From assembly GCA_000182565.2 (NCBI GenBank), contig KQ257459.1: a DNA stretch of 64,000 bases. One strand, given 5' to 3'. Of this stretch, positions 29,197 to 48,147 are shown in pieces. Within the stretch, counting starts at the first letter, position 1. Every line of letters starts with the position of its first letter. The notes beneath the pieces are model-generated. The model worked only from the letters and a program-made list of their open reading frames with translations, had not been told where the DNA came from and did not search any database. A program made the translations under genes and the position numbers. The stretch is from Spizellomyces punctatus DAOM BR117 (lineage: Eukaryota).

Positions 29197-30003
29197 ATGG
29201 CTTGGAATTGGAACACGTTTGACTGGGACAACACAACCCATCGGTTCTTTGCGCTATGCTACTTGGCCGATATGATCGTTTGGCTCTACCGAATCGCAAC
29301 GCGATTCCAGCTCTTCCCTAAATCCGAGCCTTACCCTTTCATTCGAAAAAAGTTTGCCACAACCCTTCTACGAACAATCGTACTCGTCCTGCATATCGGA
29401 TCAGGTGTAACGGAGATTGCTCTCGGATTCGCTGCGTTCTTTACGGGAAATGAAATCCTCGCCAAGATCATTACGGTTGCTGCCCTCGCCTTCCATGTCC
29501 CTACCGCCATCTACATGACACCATTTGTGTATGGAGCCCGCCGTCTCATGCGCCCGGCTTACATGGTGATCATATTCTTCCATGCCTACTGCGCCGTAAA
29601 TCTCTGGTTGAACCCAACGTCAACGGAATGGATCGTTTCGACCATCAGTGTTTTGCACACGTACATTTGGGTTCGGATCTTTTACTTTATCTTTGCAAAA
29701 ACTCAGACGCTTCCCAGTGGCCCCTACACCCTCTCGGTTGTCTTTGCCGGATACGTCACCTTGCCTTACTTTCCCCGCAACGTTGCAAAATACTCGACAG
29801 ATCTCCTCGTCACAACCTTCACCTTGTCGTACGTGACCGTAGAGTTCCTCGTGTACAAGCACATTTTAAAGTACAGCGGAAAGAAATTGGTATCAACGGA
29901 ATTTGATATCGATGACGCGGACCATGAGTTGGTTATCAAGTATGAGACACGGCGGAACGACAAGCATGATGTAATTACTATCGAGACTATTACTGTGAAA
30001 TAG
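29197..30003 (+). CDS. Uncharacterised membrane protein, about 7 TM helices with four intramembrane His, intronless
   Basis: AAACAAATG start; 268 aa with about seven hydrophobic segments. Confidence 0.8.
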   Translation: MAWNWNTFDWDNTTHRFFALCYLADMIVWLYRIATRFQLFPKSEPYPFIRKKFATTLLRTIVLVLHIGSGVTEIALGFAAFFTGNEILAKIITVAALAFHVPTAIYMTPFVYGARRLMRPAYMVIIFFHAYCAVNLWLNPTSTEWIVSTISVLHTYIWVRIFYFIFAKTQTLPSGPYTLSVVFAGYVTLPYFPRNVAKYSTDLLVTTFTLSYVTVEFLVYKHILKYSGKKLVSTEFDIDDADHELVIKYETRRNDKHDVITIETITVK

Positions 30004-30304
30004 GTTGTATTATTATGTATATTTATTAGAGCTGGCTGTTGCGATGTCTATTGTACATAGGGGGTGGGATTTTAGTGTACATTGCATTTGATTATTTAAG
30101 TTGCTATACCAATAGGAACATGGTTTTTTTGGAGTAAATATACTCACTGTTTCATGGATGACTTGAAATGTCAGGAGACGAGAACATTGAGCAAGCGTGC
30201 AAGGAATATTTTCCAGTATGACCAGCTCTGCTCTATTCTTCTAGTATATCTTACCAGCATCTAGCGCATACATCACTCCACAAGGTTATGTTCTATGCAT
30301 TCAT

Positions 30305-31293
30305 CTATCGTTCTACGAGCACCCCGCCTACCCATTCCCCACTCCCAAACTCCATCTCACACGGCAACGACTCAAAGATGCCCACATCATGTGCCAAAAT
30401 CTCCTTTTGGTCCTTGGCAAACCTGCAAAAGAAAGGAGACTTTAACAACTGCATAAATGGATCCAAAATTTGCACAGAAATATAAACCTGAACCTCCCGC
30501 AAAACTTTTTATTCCCAACAAATACGGGCCACCAAATCTGATCGTCCGGCCACATTATGTGAAACGGAATCTTGTCAAGGGAAAACCATTCTGGTCGCAT
30601 TTCCTCGGTCCTTTATTTTGTTTAGCCGTTAAAAAAGGCATATTCACAATTGGGCTGGAATGGAAGACATACTCGGAGACGACACCCTCAAAGGTCTCCC
30701 CTCGATACACATGGACCTCCAATCCGGTCGGGTCACCCTCAAAATGGAACCACTATAAAGCATCATGCTCAGTTAAAAGAAAGTAATCGACACTAGCACG
30801 AGAGAAATCAAGTTTAATCGCAAGAACCTACCAACATCCCCGCTCGCTCCAGGTGGGATACACGTATCCCTGCTTCTTCCTACGACAATTCCACAATATG
30901 AGGACCAGAACATACGGCAATAGAAAGACGGTACGGTATGGAACCTCAAGTTCTCTGACAGCACCCTCGAGTATCGTTTCTCCTTTTTCAACCTTGCCTC
31001 CAAACCTATTTCCAAATCGCCGAAACCCAATGCAAAACGTTGACATCAACATGTCAAGATACGACAAAGAAGAGCCTTGTTCGACAGTACCCATTCCAAT
31101 ACCCAGCCCCAAACCCCCGTTTCTTCATCCCCAATAAAACTCGTCTCTACATTCACAAATAGTTTAGTTTCAGTCTATCAAGCGTTTTTTCCAAACCAGC
31201 ATTCGTCATTTGATACCATACCTCGCCATCGAAATCGCCAAATACAAACACTAACGTCAAGACCTTTTTAGAGGTTATGGGAGAGGTTTCCAT
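30305..31293 (-). CDS. NUDT1: Nudix hydrolase, 8-oxo-dGTPase (MTH1-like)
   Basis: Spliced KKVLTLVFV...[42 protein letters not shown] (Nudix box), EMRPEWF...[10 protein letters not shown]. Confidence 0.88.
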
Positions 31294-34085
31294 GGCCAGC
31301 ATTGCTACAAGAATGTTTTGAAAAAGTCTCGAAAACCGTGTACCTCAAGCGCGCGTTTTGTCCGACATCTCGGCCAAAATTGGGAGAATGTCACCCCAAA
31401 AGCACTTCACACCAAGGATGTCATGCCGTGCCCACCGTAGATACCAACAAGATCAAGCTTCTTTCAAAATACGACTTGCAATCTTGCGGGGTTCTCGACA
31501 ATGTCTTCAAGGTTTAATTATATGTTGGTTCTTTATGTGATATCATTTGTCCAGCACCTTGACGGTTGCCGGAAGCCTTCATAAATATGAATTAGAAAGG
31601 TTACCTACACTTCCTGTTACTCTTTTACACATTCTGTATCCGCAGTATTCTCCAGCACACAGTTTATTAGATGTCGGAACTCTTCCATGTACAGGCCGCG
31701 ATTTACAAGTGCTTCTCCTGACGATATCCCGACTTTATTCAAGTAGTTACAAAAGAAAAAGGGATATGGTATAAAACAAGATACTCTTAGTTCACCGGCA
31801 GAAATAACTACCACTATGGATTCAATATAGCTAGTCCAAAACAAAATCCTGTAATAAAGTAGGTCTATTATCAATCCTATCATCCCGCAGATCATCAGAC
31901 TAAATATGCCGTGTTAAATACGAGTCATTACACTGTTACCCTCATGGAACATACAAATGCTACCTCAAGCGAAAAGTGAGGGCCTCGGTATTTTCGTGAA
32001 GAAAAAGGATCAAGGCACCCATTAGTTTGCCAGCTTCGAATCGCCACTCTTCTCCGAAAAGCTCACATACTACATGGTAACGAATCGCAATATTGAATCC
32101 TGATAATAAGGCAAACCTAAAATATATCTTTCACCGTTTGACGGCAAATGTCCATTAAACCGCTCGTCCGAAAGACGTTATCCTCGATGATGGGTGTCGA
32201 GATTCGTGCTACCTATCTTTGACATGCATAAGATACCATTTGTGCCGCAAAGCATTACTCAACTGATATCCGAGCCCTACTATTTGGACATCGTTCGATG
32301 GGATACTCATCCCGATACCCAAGATACTAATCCTCAAGATTCTCGTTGATCTCAATGAATCCGGATAATCAAAATTCGGGGCCCCCTCCATTGCCATCCA
32401 TAGCACCCGGTTGAAACTAAAAAGATGGGTAATCCGCAGCGACACAACTAAGCGGTTTTGGCCATGGCATAGAGGAGGTTACGACGACCAGTAGGCGAAA
32501 ATCCAAAGATAAATCAAGCTGAAGTCTAGTCCCATATTAAAAGGTCAGGTATTAAAATATGGTATGTAGTACGGCATTTACAATGGAGTTACCCAGGTAT
32601 AGCGACAATGTACATGATGATTGGTAACATTGCTGTGTTGACCAGCAGTCCCGCTGCTACTTTGTGTAGATTCCTTTTATTTCTGGTTTTAAAGAAAAAG
32701 GTCCTGAAAAGCGCTACATTTGAGTAATACTGATAATTGCTCAAAAAAGTCTTGTGAAAAAGTCCGCCTTTGAAAGAAGATTTCCACTTTTGAAGATTCC
32801 AGAGCTGATCATTTGCGACGTGGCCAAACAGCTGCAACATCTCATAGATTTACCTACCAACATTCTGTGGAGATACAGAATAGGCAGGGCATCGAAATAA
32901 AGGTTGAAAAACAAAAATGCATAATGACATCTAAGGTTTTGAAATGGATAATCAACAACAACGTTTCCTCTGTCTATTAGTTACTTTTCAGCGGTAAGAT
33001 GCAAAGAACATGTAGAGCTCTCAGAGACTACATAACCACCCCTTCGAACTCCTATAGACCACACCCTGTGTTTTCCTTTAGAAAGCTAATTGAAAGATAC
33101 ACTGAAAAGGTGGGGTATCACTGCCAATATAAATCCCAGATTCGTTTGAAAGATTCAAGCTTCCAAAACGTATTTGACTTTGATATGAAGCGTTGTAGAG
33201 GTTGCATATTCTTATAAGGAGCGACCACTAAAATCCACCTCTTTTAAAACAATAAGAGTGCAAGCTCACTAATCCCAGCACCATGTTGCTGGTCCAATAT
33301 ACGGATAGGGGCTATACCGCTTGGCATTCAAGAACGACAAACCCTATCACGAAGCATTTTTATCCCTGTTTTTTACAACGATCAATGAAATGCCGTACAA
33401 CCTGCTTTCAAGAAACTTTGTTGCCGAAACTTGTCATTGGGAGAGTTCAAGCCCAGTAGCCGCTAGACCATCAAGCGAGGGGTCATCTGGTGGTAGGTTT
33501 TGTCCGATGGGGCAGGAAGGATGATGGTCAAGGACCCAGCTGGTAACGAGCCCAAAGACGCCAAAAATTGGGTAGGATATTATAAAGTTTCCATTTATCT
33601 ACATCGCCAGGAAACGTAAACGGAAATCCACAAAAACTGTATTGCTCATCAACAGTTCATGAGATGGCGGAAACGTAAAAGTTCAAAGGAAAATCATAAA
33701 GGAATGCTGAAAACGATCCATTTCTCCACCCATCAAACCACACCTAATCAAGCAGACAACACAAGTTCTACCCCCAAACAAGTCTTCTACCCAGTTTCAG
33801 TTAAAACAAAAACAAAAAAAAATGCGTGGAAAAAAAAAACAGAAAAGTATCAATCCCATCCCACCAAAGAACGTCCTCGCTAATCAACGAACCCCTCAAA
33901 TCCCCCAAAAGAAAAAACAGAAAAATGTCGCCATGTCTCGATCTAAAGGATAGAACATGCAAGGGTATAACAGATGTTTGCTTGAACTAACCGAAACCAA
34001 ATGCTTCCCGCCCTAACATATACGCAAAAACAAAGATATCAGCCCAAACTCCTACCGACATCCCGCTCGTCGACGTAAACTCACC

Positions 34086-36512
34086 TTATTCTTCATCAGC
34101 CTCATCCTCCGGTTTGACCTCTTGTGAATGTTGTCTCGCTTCCGGTTCGCCCTCAGGTTCCCCTGAAGATGGTTGAGATCCACTCATCCCCGCAATGCTG
34201 GCAATTTCGACCAAAGCACTCGCCGCCTCGCTCAAAGAATTTTGCATTTCTGCTGAGGCTTCGACGGTCTCTGGGGCCGGGGCAGGTGTGGGTATGAAGA
34301 GTGCCATCATGTTGTGCATATGGTCGGGTGACCTGAAAACAGAACATAAATATGAGTTGCGACTTATCAATATTTCATGACACAATTTTTGCTACGCACC
34401 AACTGTTGATTCCAGGCACCAATCCAACAGAGCGAAACACTGTACAGAAATCTTTGATATTAGGTCCCAAATAGAACATGACAAAACTCTCGTATGGCTG
34501 CGGCAAAGGCGGAGGTGGAGGAGACACCGCTAATGTCGAATGTTTAATTGCCTCCTTCTGATCCCGATCGGTGGATTGATCATGTTCACCATCCGCATGT
34601 TGGGGAGGAGGATGAGGGGCGGGTACATGCGTCATGGGCGGATTGTTATGTCGCAAAATACAGTAAGGATGCTGCAGAATGGGGGTAAACCAATCCGCTC
34701 CAAACTCTGCTTTCAGCAGAAAAAGTCCTTCGACGAACTCTTTATTTGCAAATTTGGTGAAAATGATTTGCAAAAGCCGCTCCAATCCGCCCTCAAACGA
34801 GGCGTGGTGTGAAGTCGGGCTGCCGTAAATCTGTGTTGTCGAGAACGGTCGAATGCCAGAGAGGTTACACCACAGTCGACCAAACCATGACTGCTGTTCG
34901 GCCGCCTTAAAGTCCCGCACTGTTTGCATAACCATATCAAATTGCTGCCCAAGGACCACGTTCTTGCTCAGCTCGAAAATGAAACCATCATTGAAAGGCA
35001 GTCGCGGTCGCGAATTTTCATCCGATAGATCGCCATCGGACAAGTTACTGGTCGTTGCACTGGGCAAAGGTGGTGGAACCGTCACCGGGATAGGAATGGA
35101 TATGGGTGCATTTGGTGGCGGTGGTTGAGTAATTGGCGGGAAATGCATCTCCTGAGATCCATCAGGTTCGGTGCGCCTTCGTTGTGTACATTCTGGTTCA
35201 CCATCTTCGTCGCGGGCATGTTTGCCCGGCTTGGCTGCGTGCACACCATGATGCCCATTAACATGCCCAGGCGTCGAAACAGAACTTCGTCGCCGACTGC
35301 CACTTCCTCCACTGGCTTCCTGGACTCCATTGGCCGACTTGCCATGACCTCCTCGTCCATCTTGTGCCGAACTAGAGCCTTGGGAGAACGTAACCGTACT
35401 GTATGGCGATCCCGAGCCTTCGTTCGCCTTTTCCTGCTCCGCAGCAGATATGCGAGCTTTGGGAACTTTAAGATTATGCTTTTCCAAATACATTTCCAGA
35501 AATGCTGTAGTTATAACGCCATTAGGAGCCTGCCTGCAAACATCCATCCAAGTCTCCACCAATTTCTTTTGTGGGACTTTGGACAGCAGCTGACAATGTG
35601 ACTGATACATGGGGGGCCGATATTCCTTTGACAGCTTTGAAGCAATGTCAGAATAGATCCGGTACGATATTATGTACTCATACGTGGTCGATTTGGAAAA
35701 TCCCAAGTGGGCCTTTGTCCATTCCAAAAATTCCTTTTGGGTTTTCATCAGCTTATCTTCATAATAAAGCTTGTGAAGGGTCTGGCCAATGACCACAAAA
35801 GACGATACATTTTTAGTCTCGTTGAGGATACGCAATTTGTGCTCATCAAGGGCCGCCGCGTCTCCATCGCCCATATTCGGAGGCTTCTGCCACGGTATTA
35901 GCTTGATTTCACTCTTTTTCTTCCCGGACTTTCGTGAGCTTTGTTTGCGTTCGGTATTCGCCGACCGCCGGCTTGCTTCCCGCTCCGGAGAGGGTAAAGC
36001 TCGCTCGAGATGGTCGTGAGAGTCCGTTGCCTGATATTCCTGAATGGTGGGAGATGAAGGGGCGGGTGAAGGGGGTCCTGTTGATGGAAAAAAAAGTTTA
36101 ATCACCGCCATATCAATTCTTGCTACAATCATGATTCAAACCTCGTTTGTTTGCCTTGGCTCTGGTGTCAGTGGGAAGCGGTCGAGGCTTCCGAGGTGTC
36201 TGAAAGCTTTGTTGTCCTATAGACCGTGAGTGCCGAACGCGATCAGGTGTAGGCGGCAAGCGAACTGGACTGAGCTTGTGCAGAGCGTCAAGCAATTCTT
36301 CAGGGTCCGACCGGCAAAGAGGCAAATGAACGCCCTCCGAGTCGACTGAATCAAAACCAGAAGCGTGCCAACCGTCCGTCTCTTGTGCACTCGTCCAAGG
36401 ATCGCTTAAAGTTGGTTGTTGATGAAGCGCAAGAAGAGTCTGCGCGGCGTCGGAAGGCAGGAGGTAGTCTTGCTTGGCTGGAATTTTGACGGAACTGTAG
36501 ACCTTGAAACGG
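34086..36512 (-). CDS. DUF3102-like helical/HTH domain plus phage Dam-type N6-adenine methyltransferase-like domain (probably inactive); true start not located
   Basis: Exons about 36512-36142, 36077-34400 and 34332-34086 joined in frame by GT-AG introns; domain motifs are given in the findings. Confidence 0.75.
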
Positions 36513-43759: not shown

Positions 43760-44886
43760 CTAGAGAGCTGTCCCTCTCTCAAAGTTGCCTTTAATTTCTG
43801 CAGTGTATTTATCATATGATCGTGCAATCTTTTTGTTGAACTGCATATTGCGTTCGTTGATGTAGGTACTGAGGAGGACAAGTCAGCGAAGCCAACCAAA
43901 AGGTCATCAATCGTACGAGAATATACGTACACTTCGTCATCGTCATCAAACGCCCGTCGTCGGGAGAATTTGCTTCGCGCCTGTTCCCTAAAAATCGGTC
44001 AGCAATTCAGTACGGGACGAATTAAAAATGCAGTGTTCTTGAGTGACTGGTACGTACTGCTTCTGTAAATCCTGGACCAGTCTCTCAACCGCCTCCCTGC
44101 TCGGCTTACCGTCCGGGTTCGCATAAGCCAATGAATCTGCATCCCGGTAAAAGCTGCTCTCGCCTCCCTCAGTAGCCACCACCGCTGCACGTTGTTCGGC
44201 ATATTCTATCAAATTGGGTTTCAGCTCTCGGACGAGTTTATCGTACTTTTTGGCCTGCGCTTGGGCGTAATCTGTAAATGCGTTGTTGGCGTTCTTTTCC
44301 TTTTGTTGCTGTTTTTCGTTCCAGGCTTCCACTTGCTCGGCTGTGTAGTGGAGGGCTTTTTGTCGGGCATAATCCTCCCCAGCCATTTCAACCGTCTGTA
44401 AGAGCAAAGGACAAGTTGAGCTTCCTCATCCATCCTAGATACTGCACAACAAACTTGTTCCAACCTCTTTCTCCAGCAATTTTTCCGCCTTTTCCTTCTT
44501 CCTTTCAATTCGCACAGCTTCTCGAGGGTTCTCTTGCTTCTTCCTATACTCTGCTTTGACGTCCTCCCGATTCAATCGTTCCGACTCGCTCTATTTGAAA
44601 GTTCAACTTGTCAGCTGTCCTGATCCCAGCAACCAACTCTCTATGAAATAAGCAGTAAATATACCCGCAGCTTTTTGAGTTTCTTTAGTCTCGCCATTTG
44701 AGCGGCCAATTTTGCCTTTTGGTCCGCTGCGTCATCCTTTGGGGTTTGTACGGGATCTGTTTGTACAGGATCTGCTGTTGTTGAAGTCGCGGTATTTGAT
44801 GTGTTGTCGGATGGTGATGTATCGTCTGGCTGCTGCTCCTGCTGTGCTGGCTCCGTTGGTTCTGTGTGTTTTCTCTTTCTGGCCAT
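43760..44886 (-). CDS. SYF2: Pre-mRNA splicing factor Syf2
   Basis: [16 protein letters not shown]...FTDY...KFSRRR...[35 protein letters not shown]. Confidence 0.92.
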
Positions 44887-45619
44887 TGCTAAAGTTCTGA
44901 TCTTGTTGCAGGCAGCTGCTGCTGCGCACATGCCAAGCTCCTGCATATTTGTTGCCATGGCAACAACGAGTGATCAAATCACCCCTTTCTTGGGTTTCTT
45001 TTCATCCTTTTTGTTTTTCAATGCTTGAGCTTTCGCCCAACTGCCTACGCCGTCAGTTTGCTACACCAACATTGATGAACAAACGGTCACGGATATGGAG
45101 ATGGACTCTGTAGTTTCCTCGCAGCTTTTCCTTGGCTTCTTGGCTTGAAGGGCTGTCACGCCCTAATGTGTGAAAACAGCCCGTCCGTCCATGCCACCAC
45201 CTAGCCAAGCATCAACCCAGCCAGCCAGCAAAGCCAAGCAACGCAATGAAACGTACGAACGCTCATACGCACACAAGACGTGCCCTGCCCTTGCCAAGAA
45301 GCCAAGAGTCCTTGTTCGTCGTCTTGGCCAAAATCCAATGCAAGTCAAACTATCTAATATGACATAAGCAAGAAGGTGGATGTGGCTGGTGTGAGGTGGA
45401 TGTGGCTGTGAATTACCATAAAAGGAAATTGATTGTTGTGGTTGCGCCTCTCATTCAGCCAAGCGGATTTTTATATTCAAAAAGGGCCCCCGTCGTTCTT
45501 CTTCCCATCTTTACGCATCTCATCATCATCGTCATCCTCCTTCTCGCCTTCACAGCAGCCTCCGCGTCCTCCTCCTTTTACCAACACACTCGTTCACACC
45601 CTCTTTACATTTCCTCGAC

Positions 45620-47255
<1,636 letters not shown>

Positions 47256-48147
47256 GCGCGAGGTTGCAACGCGCTGCAGGATGGGCAGGTTTCATTATAC
47301 CGCGCTGCGCTGTGAACAACCAGAGAGTTTTACCTTTATTGTTGTATAATACCAGTTTGCTTCATATATCAATTGGTTCTTCAAACTGTCTCGTGCCTAC
47401 ATGTTTGGTCTTTGTTGATTGTGCTCATGTGCAGGCTCGGAGCAATAACTTTTAGCTGCATGTTTTCTTGCAGATTTTTTGGGTTTCCATTGCAATCCCT
47501 TTTCGTATTTCTCCAGGCAGCTAAACGCAACGGTAATCTGACCGCTGGCGACAATCGTAACTCAACCCCAATCGCTTCCTCGCTCCGTGGATTACGCGCG
47601 GCGAAAGCCGATGCTGTTGTGGAGGAGGTCGGCCGAAAGCGCACATAATAATTGCCACTCTACACACGCTCATGATTACCAGCAACGACGCATTTTTAGA
47701 CTCTGGTCGCTCTGCGGCCGCTCTTCCCAAACGCTTTTCGGACAGCTGCAGTTTCCTCCTCGTGTGTTGACGAGATTTTCTCCGATGCGTACGTAATCTG
47801 CACAGCCATTTTGGATTTCGCCAGGACGGGGGAAACGACCCTCAGGGTCATCCAGGATTTACGCTTGTCTACGGGGGCTGATTTTTTAACTTTGACCCTT
47901 TACGATATCCACGAGAGAGGGTGGGATAGACGTTTTCAGTTTCCGCTTTGCGTTGGGATTCCTACTGTTGAATGTGATGTTTGCTTGGATGGTCAAGTAT
48001 ACTGGGATATGGGACGAATATTATGGTTTTGGAATGTGATGTATGCACAGGGTGCTTCGGTACGGTTTATCAATATATGTTGATGGTCAAGTGGTTGAAA
48101 TTGAAAACTGAATTGCTTTGCTGTTGATGTAGGTGCCTAGTGTAGAC

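Follow-up and report, generated by a model that had tools for sequence, protein, structure and literature searches.

The gene SPPG_05986 of the chytrid Spizellomyces punctatus DAOM BR117 lies on the minus strand of a 64,000 nucleotide (nt) stretch of contig KQ257459.1 (assembly GCA_000182565.2), hereafter the window, and, judged by its sequence, very probably encodes a conserved pseudo-enzyme. An original prediction, made for positions 34820-34990, had described the catalytic motif and the S-adenosylmethionine (SAM) binding loop of a Dam-like domain as rewired; on the minus strand these positions encode residues 382-438 (NDGFIFELSKNVVLGQQFDMVMQTVRDFKAAEQQSWFGRLWCNLSGIRPFSTTQIYG) of the SPPG_05986 open reading frame (ORF). 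The enclosing ORF (34375..36132, minus strand, 585 codons, P0001) is the longest of the window and its frame is intact. A BLASTP comparison with the annotated SPPG_05986 protein at NCBI (P0002) gave 100% identity over 492 residues (ORF residues 87-578, ending in GINSW). The encoded protein consists of a helix-turn-helix (HTH) of the ParB type, a disordered linker and a C-terminal Dam-like domain, in that order.

Homology of the C-terminal domain

The C-terminal pseudo-methyltransferase domain (34400..35007, minus strand, residues 376-578), which appears to derive from Dam/PF05869, escapes direct searches. A Pfam scan of SPPG_05986 returned no family at E ≤ 1, none of the 41 scanned members of the SPPG_05986 family (family A) matched PF05869 (0 out of 41), and a sequence search of the PDB retrieved only SKI2 (E at least 3.9). 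PDB searches with the profiles of alignments A1 and A4 retrieved only low-complexity or chance rows (E at least 0.083). Alignment A1, which consists of SPPG_05986 residues 365-578 and 40 homologs, was used both for a structure model and for a profile search. As a profile against 1.84 billion representative sequences it matched 182 proteins at E ≤ 0.001, of which 62 matched at E ≤ 1e-30 and were taken as family A itself. Of the remote matches listed (89 rows, from P0088 on), 76 were scanned for PF05869, and short fragments (13 rows, 51-135 residues) were omitted. The Dam family was matched at E ≤ 0.01 in 39 out of 76 proteins, of which 26 exceeded the gathering score, and no second family recurred. 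Furthermore, hhalign aligned the C-terminal domain of family A (57 sequences) with 17 relatives that bear NPP[FY] over 154 columns with a probability of 99.8% (E 7.9e-28). Based on this sequence-profile evidence (182 matches, PF05869 in 39 out of 76, hhalign probability of 99.8%), which we regard as decisive, the domain is homologous to the PF05869 Dam N6-adenine methyltransferases, though it is invisible to Pfam.

The AlphaFold model of the C-terminal domain (predicted local distance difference test, pLDDT, 84; predicted template modelling score, pTM, 0.77) displays an alpha/beta core and one low-confidence proline-rich loop. A Foldseek search with this model against the predicted viral structures of BFVD gave a top E value of 3.3e-5, and the named matches of upper rank were phage N6-adenine methyltransferases. 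Foldseek against the PDB found nothing at E ≤ 0.001 (M.BceJIV ranked first, E 0.19), and the list consisted mostly of methyltransferases. The top rows of a VIA-align comparison, all with middling scores, were N6-adenine methyltransferases throughout: PCIF1 (Z 7.0, root-mean-square deviation 3.2, 123 residues aligned), T4 Dam (Z 6.9, 3.4, 112) and DpnM (Z 6.8, 3.5, 119). E. coli Dam scored Z 6.3. The Pfam domain of the MT-A70 methyltransferases is PF05063. A relationship of SPPG_05986 to these proteins (AMT1/MTA9, METTL3/14/4) was considered and rejected, as no Pfam match was obtained and the gene is absent from the source file of the tree in figure 1 of PMC12695648, which holds five other SPPG identifiers.

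The ParB-type HTH domain (35467..35850, minus strand, P0001 residues ~95-222) was delimited with AlphaFold and Foldseek. Residues 87-230 yield an all-helical model (pLDDT 90) whose best matches in the PDB are the DNA-binding domains of ParB, Spo0J and Noc (probability 0.99-1.0, TM 0.47-0.59) but at E values of 0.12-0.8. The family profile also matches the N-terminal part of P0169 and P0170, both of which carry PF05869 downstream, and on visual comparison the HTH sequence aligns with the ParB-HTH row that the PMC4738411 supplement gives for BATDEDRAFT_85509. DUF3102 was weakly matched by two of the 41 family members in Pfam, and the PHROGs database gave weak matches only (best E 0.0061, on the HTH). 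No ParBc domain (the N-terminal CTP-binding domain of ParB) was found beside the HTH by Pfam at E ≤ 1; only the helical DNA-binding part is ParB-like. The linker between the two domains (35008..35466, minus strand, residues 223-375) is of low complexity.

Loss of the catalytic motifs

The eukaryotic family that joins a ParB-type HTH to a chlorophyte-type Dam domain is defined by the motifs axTP (WYTP), DP, a T or D in strand 2, [D/N]G and NPP[F/Y] (PMC4738411). The motifs that the original prediction had given for active enzymes (WYTP, FDLDPC/A and G-RVWLNPPY) are present in alignment rows in the supplement of the same study and in the PF05869-positive proteins that were fetched. In SPPG_05986, the remnant of motif I and strand 1 is FDMV (34930..34941, minus strand) in place of FDLDP[CA], and the remnant of motif IV is WFGRLWCN-LSGIR-PF (34840..34887, minus strand, W416 to F431, WFGRLWCNLSGIRPF) in place of W.G..[FY].NPP[YF]G, as determined by hhalign and column counts; both strings had been read correctly from the start.

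The reduction of the SAM-binding element is common to the family. Among the 57 members of family A, the F is found in 56 and the D in 53, followed by V/I and L/C/M, and the DP is lost. The loop after FDMV, which had been reported missing, is part of a deletion of ~15 columns relative to the active enzymes (hhalign) that spans strand 2 and [D/N]G, and in the C-terminal model the first strand (36-38) is followed, without a further strand in between, by the one that carries W.G (55-59). The lack of a visible W.TP motif was confirmed as well: LPF[ND] stands at the place that aligns with WYTP.

Motif IV combines conserved and lost elements. The W and G of W.G are invariant (57 out of 57) and PP is found in none of the 57 members. 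The asparagine that had been described as kept is indeed present in SPPG_05986, and across family A 34 sequences have N at this position, 21 have D and two have C; the next residue is L in 53 and the one after it S or T in 45. The further suggestion that the motif is split by an insertion holds in part. The alignment with the NPP[FY] set by hhalign pairs N with N and, past a four-residue insertion, PF with PF, but the gaps fall elsewhere in the alignment with family C (described below). Directly behind the conserved P, 27 of the 57 sequences have F, 13 have L and 17 have another residue. The parse N-LSGIR-PF is possible but ambiguous, and not secure, because the gaps shift against family C and the aromatic F is present in only 27 out of 57 members.

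The strands downstream of motif IV were predicted to be intact and are modelled at pLDDT >90. About 16 extra residues are located between strand 4 and the next helix compared with an active relative (own count on the sequences). Four near-invariant motifs of family A in this part of the domain (EG.FLL[KR]AEFGADWF, HPYCILRH, F.YLGPN..F and VPG.NSW) have counterparts in the active relatives (LLKA..G..WF, YPHC, Y.G.N..F and IPG.NSW). Two of the conserved segments lie in a predicted dimer interface: the near-invariant stretch GADWFTPILQHPYCILRH (34648..34701, minus strand, residues 478-495), shared with the active relatives (G..WF...YPHC), and the last strand and helix with the C-terminal VPGINSW (34400..34497, minus strand, residues 546-578), common to all four families. 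A variable proline-rich insert (34498..34638, minus strand, residues 499-545; pLDDT 56-69 in model blocks 131-170) is located within the domain. Many family A members (Rhizoclosmatium, Chytriomyces, Blyttiomyces and others) contain a conserved basic KR.KR patch in this insert, possibly a nuclear localisation signal, which is not there in S. punctatus.

Constraint on the gene

Selection was gauged by protein identity per region between SPPG_05986 and ten orthologs. Identity ranged over 52-94% in the HTH, 35-97% in the domain core, 14-35% in the linker and 11-38% in the internal insert, and the domain and the HTH were more conserved than the linker in all ten comparisons. The values for Powellomyces are 94% (HTH), 86-91% (domain core), 35% (linker) and 21% (insert). 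At long range, the motif region is less conserved than the core (25-44% versus 35-56% identity in Batrachochytrium, Polychytrium, Cladochytrium and Kappamyces). The proposed pseudo-enzyme with a retained fold is well supported by these data, as DP, strand 2 with DG, and PP[YF] are gone in 57 out of 57 sequences, the fold is confidently predicted and the domain is far more conserved than the linker.

An explanation of the altered motifs by a decaying pseudogene, by an annotation or assembly artefact or by a micro-intron that restores NPPF has a negligible probability, and no evidence in its favor was found. Decay is ruled out because the frame of 585 codons is intact and the domain is conserved far above the linker. 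An alignment of orthologs, which had been suggested as a check, displayed the same altered motifs, conserved and colinear, in 57 homologs from many independent assemblies, which argues against decay as well as against a micro-intron or an artefact. Removal of LSGIR would require an intron of 15 nt, compared with the introns of 64-67 nt in this gene, and would produce NPF instead of NPPF. Furthermore, contigs of sequencing run X3 reproduce the window sequence without differences across 34224-34998.

Related families in chytrids and sponges

Family A is chytrid-wide. An organism name was available for 29 out of 41 matches, and we take all 29 to belong to chytrid genera (S. punctatus alone was checked in the taxonomy). 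A second family with the same architecture (family B) has also lost DP and PP[YF] (FD.S. and W.G..WGNF[STC]GP), and the asparagine position of motif IV is N in seven out of seven sequences in alignment A3. All named members of family B are sponge proteins annotated as "uncharacterized", from Sycon ciliatum (LOC135813898 and LOC135820736), Oscarella lobularis and Corticium candelabrum. The sponge proteins P0091, P0180, P0105 and P0181 are encoded on contigs of 7 to 42 Mb and represent the Calcarea and the Homoscleromorpha. Family B contains the nearest relatives outside the chytrids (hhalign probability 99.95%, E 3.7e-38 against family A) but differs in that it keeps the length between strand 1 and W.G, with no large gap relative to the active enzymes, and ends in PGVNSWCNY.

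Family C consists of the S. punctatus paralog SPPG_01607 (P0184) and 23 further matches. It represents a second chytrid family with one blastoclad and includes BATDEDRAFT_85509, which is catalogued as an N6-methyltransferase in PMC4738411. Its members keep FDLDPAS and [DN]G, and their motif IV reads SPPxG (W.G..WLSPPxG), where the residue after SPP is L, V, G, S, Q, H or T and thus mostly non-aromatic. Exceptions among the listed strings are SPPY in P0141 (Chytridium lagenaria), FPPF in P0120 (Paraphysoderma), FPPT in P0197 (Cladochytrium) and HPPN in P0196. Matches of family C to PF05869 are borderline or absent, and the motifs suggest that these proteins may be inactive or altered too. A fourth group contains ParB-HTH proteins with the full NPP[YF]G. 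Some PF05869-positive relatives (P0106, P0110, P0119, P0124 and P0168) display NPPGG at this place, with the prolines kept and no aromatic fourth residue.

A quick maximum-likelihood tree (67 rows, 186 out of 392 columns, unrooted) placed each group on one side of a branch, with approximate likelihood ratio test (SH-aLRT) values of 99 for family A, 82 for family B, 97 for family C and 97 for the NPPY group. A branch with an SH-aLRT of 98 separates family C and the NPPY group from families A and B, where reading A and B as a clade presumes a root among the enzymes. The distribution over chytrids and sponges implies either an old opisthokont ancestry with many losses or a transfer.

No SPPG_05986 or other family A protein was found in the available portion of the supplement of PMC4738411, in which the 12 "Spun1" and nine "BATDEDRAFT" places refer to other proteins. 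The locus tags SPPG_05986, SPPG_01607 and BATDEDRAFT_85509 were not found in the main texts of the literature searched, and no literature beyond PMC4738411 was found on the chytrid ParB-HTH/Dam-like family. Overall, the SPPG_05986 family is a strongly degenerate, deeply conserved variant of a known eukaryotic Dam-like family; it is new relative to print, and its chytrid-sponge distribution is unexpected. A third Batrachochytrium protein with a ParB-type HTH, BATDEDRAFT_90358, is included in the HTH alignment of PMC4738411 and belongs, by its sequence row, to neither family A nor family C.

A predicted dimer with SPPG_01607

The original prediction had raised the possibility that SPPG_05986 scaffolds an active methylase. 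A complex prediction for the SPPG_05986 domain and residues 220-399 of SPPG_01607 scored 0.71 (0.71, 0.71 and 0.72 in the individual runs), compared with 0.27 for the best control, and passes. In calibration, the 0.71 mark was reached by 51 out of 78 solved complexes and two out of 108 mismatched pairs, and among eukaryotes by 39 out of 65 solved pairs without a like older complex and two out of 126 unrelated pairs. At least 96% of the contacts recur from run to run, and the pLDDT of the partner is at least 81. A pass due to memory of a like complex is less likely because no solved relative was found by sequence. The idea of a scaffold thus gains support in silico from the passing prediction for the Dam-like domain of SPPG_01607, which favors binding without demonstrating it, but the word "active" is not supported, as the paralog has SPPxG in place of NPP[YF].

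The predicted interface is formed by residues 113-132 and 207-214 of the SPPG_05986 fragment and the equivalent residues 329-350 and 389-399 of SPPG_01607. It is pseudo-symmetric: GADWF..HPYCILRH and VPGINSW of one chain are placed against the equivalent stretches of the other. These segments coincide with the motifs that are conserved across all four families, which is evidence, though not proof, for a dimer interface that the whole family forms through its conserved C-terminal motifs.

The explanation that we tentatively favor, while giving it somewhat less than even confidence, is that SPPG_05986 is a non-catalytic, DNA-bound, dimerising subunit with SPPG_01607 as its preferred partner. The protein would be a conserved nuclear-type DNA-binding protein that acts in chromatin, is brought to DNA by its HTH and whose C-terminal domain would be a catalytically dead descendant of the ParB-HTH-fused PF05869 Dam methyltransferases. 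The roles of motifs I and IV in N6-adenine methyltransferases are established, as summarised in PMC4738411, and suggest that the domain would neither bind SAM in the canonical way nor methylate; catalysis is very unlikely because the cofactor side of the fold is removed and the adenine loop is rewritten. The dead domain would survive as a dimerisation module through the G..WF...[HY]P[YH]C surface and the C-terminal PG.NSW that are common to all branches. It would most likely pair with the Dam-like domain of SPPG_01607, where FDLDPAS and [DN]G on the SAM side are retained, and SPPG_05986 would act as the non-catalytic targeting or regulatory subunit of the pair, in the manner of METTL14, MTA9 and DNMT3L. 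Among the parts of this explanation, an action through dimerisation of the Dam-like domain is moderately probable, and the choice of SPPG_01607 over a second copy of SPPG_05986 as the predicted partner is distinctly more doubtful.

Alternative explanations

Several observations weigh against a heterodimer with SPPG_01607. A passing prediction cannot tell which family member binds, and the pseudo-symmetric interface fits homodimers of either protein equally; in addition, the complex was folded without alignments and the calibration is mostly microbial. SPPG_01607 has S in place of N/D in motif IV, in a family that mostly lacks the aromatic residue, and is possibly inactive itself, which weakens the case for a partner of an active methylase. 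Of the 25 named genera of family A, 12 are also among the 16 genera of family C and 13 are not, although the word-limited search makes such absences weak evidence. Finally, in the source data of PMC12695648 the gene-level fraction of N6-methyladenine (6mA) at ApT (6mApT) amounts to 0.024 for SPPG_05986, whereas SPPG_01607 has 0.0003-0.0006 in both stages. The paralog may therefore be little expressed in the sampled stages because its 6mApT is near zero, if 6mA tracks transcription, as a section title of that study has it. Several points favor a rival in which SPPG_05986 acts on its own, as a homodimer, as a DNA-binding factor of chromatin or transcription whose dead domain has only a dimerisation or structural role, with no link to SPPG_01607 or to adenine methylation: the predicted interface uses family-wide motifs, which makes a homodimer equally plausible, family C matches are lacking for 13 of the 25 genera, SPPG_01607 carries almost no 6mApT, and the sister family B occurs in the sponges S. 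ciliatum, O. lobularis and C. candelabrum. This rival is nevertheless considered unlikely. The one pair that was predicted passed as a heterodimer, the apparent absence of family C depends on the word-limited search, and pure dimerisation requires neither the N/D that is kept in motif IV of 55 out of 57 family A members nor the N found in all seven family B sequences.

In a further rival, SPPG_05986 would be a reader of 6mA or ApT: a residual pocket (the N/D of motif IV, W.G and the aromatic residues of WF) would accommodate an adenine that is flipped or N6-methylated, and affinity for DNA would come from the HTH. In its favor, the N/D is kept in 55 out of 57 members, W and G do not vary, the WF of GADWF hardly varies, chytrids including S. 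punctatus are rich in 6mA at ApT that marks expressed genes (PMC12695648), a 2026 review knows of no 6mA reader in fungi (PMC13297926), and inactive methylase domains with a proposed role in nucleic acid binding exist, such as the DIRS1 domain (PMC4738411). However, the adenine-holding PP[YF] loop has been lost, the aromatic residue for stacking varies (27 F, 13 L and 17 other residues among the 57 members), the motif region is less well conserved than the core in distant orthologs, and the sister clade is found in sponges, whereas animals are said to have lost the AMT1-6mA pathway (PMC12695648). A reader function is rated slightly below the homodimer. Still less credit, to the point of being very improbable, is given to SPPG_05986 as a methyltransferase for adenine or another substrate whose cofactor pocket would be unorthodox and whose motif IV would be split (N...PF). 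The hhalign pairing of N and PF with the NPPF of active relatives across the four-residue insertion and the conserved N/D speak for it, but DP, the acidic or T residue of strand 2 and DG are all missing, so that the protein lacks the canonical contacts to SAM, the aromatic of PF is poorly conserved, the loop aligns differently against family C, and no Pfam methyltransferase model matches.

Gene model and locus

The annotated coding region of SPPG_05986 (34086..35874, minus strand, from BLASTP and the ORF list) consists of an exon at 34400-35874, an intron at 34333-34399 and an exon at 34086-34332 that includes the stop codon. The annotated start is M87 of the ORF, at 35874, and the first coding exon ends with GINSW at 34400. 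The intron of 67 nt reads GTGCGT...TTTTCAG, and the second exon is contained in the ORF 34086..34385. A GT..AG intron of 64 nt in the 5' region (36078..36141, minus strand) is indicated by one spliced contig from run X2 (the kind of which was guessed as RNA) that joins 36076 to 36141, and its splicing deletes the first two ATGs of the mechanical ORF. The exon upstream of this intron (36142-36372) is open in frame, with 144 codons and no ATG. The stretch PPSPAPSSPT...LPSPE, conserved at the N-terminus of the proteins from Thoreauomyces, Fimicolochytrium and Gaertneriomyces, is located upstream of the annotated M87. As the 5' intron removes ATGs and the conserved stretch precedes M87, the annotated start codon and 5' end of SPPG_05986 are provisional. 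From ~6% of the raw RNA-seq run X8, 10 reads were placed at the locus, nine of them partially, which gave depth in six out of 30 bins and none over the motif.

The neighboring genes encode RGS, Erg28, P-type ATPase, HAD hydrolase, actin, mitochondrial carrier and CH-domain proteins, and a role for SPPG_05986 based on gene neighborhood was rejected given this set. The G+C content falls to 0.41-0.42 at 30001-34000 of the window, directly downstream of SPPG_05986, and the AT skew is strongly negative (-0.25 and -0.16) at 44001-48000, around the actin-like ORF.

Significance

Together with the paralog that keeps the SAM motif and the sponge sister family, SPPG_05986 provides concrete candidates for proteins that take part in adenine methylation without catalysing it. 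For the PF05869 clade, which until now was catalogued in eukaryotes only as presumed enzymes, it is a new and deep-branching case of how a pseudo-enzyme evolves. If the protein is merely a dimeric DNA-binding factor, it represents a tidy case of domain exaptation and little more. A far-reaching, and correspondingly improbable, extension is that families A and B represent one ancient opisthokont lineage in which dead Dam-like proteins continue to engage adenine in DNA; the lineage would be either the first dedicated reader of 6mA/ApT in fungi or the DNA-targeting subunit of a second, AMT1-independent adenine-directed complex with SPPG_01607. S. punctatus is reportedly transformable, going by the title of Medina et al. 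2020.

Comparison with known systems

The closest described relative is the ParB-HTH and chlorophyte-type Dam family of Iyer, Zhang and Aravind 2016 (PMC4738411; group 2, clade 2, second family, with Volvox, Chlamydomonas and Batrachochytrium BATDEDRAFT_85509), which corresponds to family C and the NPP[YF] set of this study and has SPPG_01607 as its S. punctatus member. SPPG_05986 shares its two-domain layout and the motifs LL[KR]A..G..WF, [YH]P[HY]C, Y.G.N..F and PG.NSW (hhalign probability 99.7-99.8%), and the SPPG_05986 family profile matches both domains. It differs by the lack of WYTP, DP, the T/D of strand 2, [D/N]G and NPP[F/Y], by the extra residues counted after strand 4 (~16), and by its position in a separate clade with the sponge family, which a branch with an SH-aLRT of 98 splits from family C and the NPPY group.

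With the phage and bacterial Dam proteins of PF05869, SPPG_05986 shares a Rossmann core with an abbreviated strand 3, and its matches among predicted structures are phage N6-adenine methyltransferases. In contrast to these proteins it falls under every Pfam threshold, lacks the catalytic motifs, is eukaryotic and intron-bearing, and contains a long disordered linker and a proline-rich insert. The E. coli and T4 Dam group (group 3 of Iyer and coauthors) is defined by an inserted winged-HTH target-recognition domain and DPPY. Compared with classical ParB/Spo0J, SPPG_05986 has no ParBc domain and resembles ParB in the helical DNA-binding part alone.

Inactive methyltransferase partners include MTA9, which pairs with MTA1, and DNMT3L, which pairs with DNMT3A. 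METTL14 is likewise the inactive partner of METTL3 (PMC4738411). SPPG_05986 differs from these proteins in belonging to a PF05869-like clade instead of the MT-A70 or C5 methyltransferases, in a partner of doubtful activity and in a pairing that is only predicted. If the favored explanation holds, it would share with all three the same arrangement, in which a dead paralog keeps the fold and is paired with a cofactor-binding paralog.

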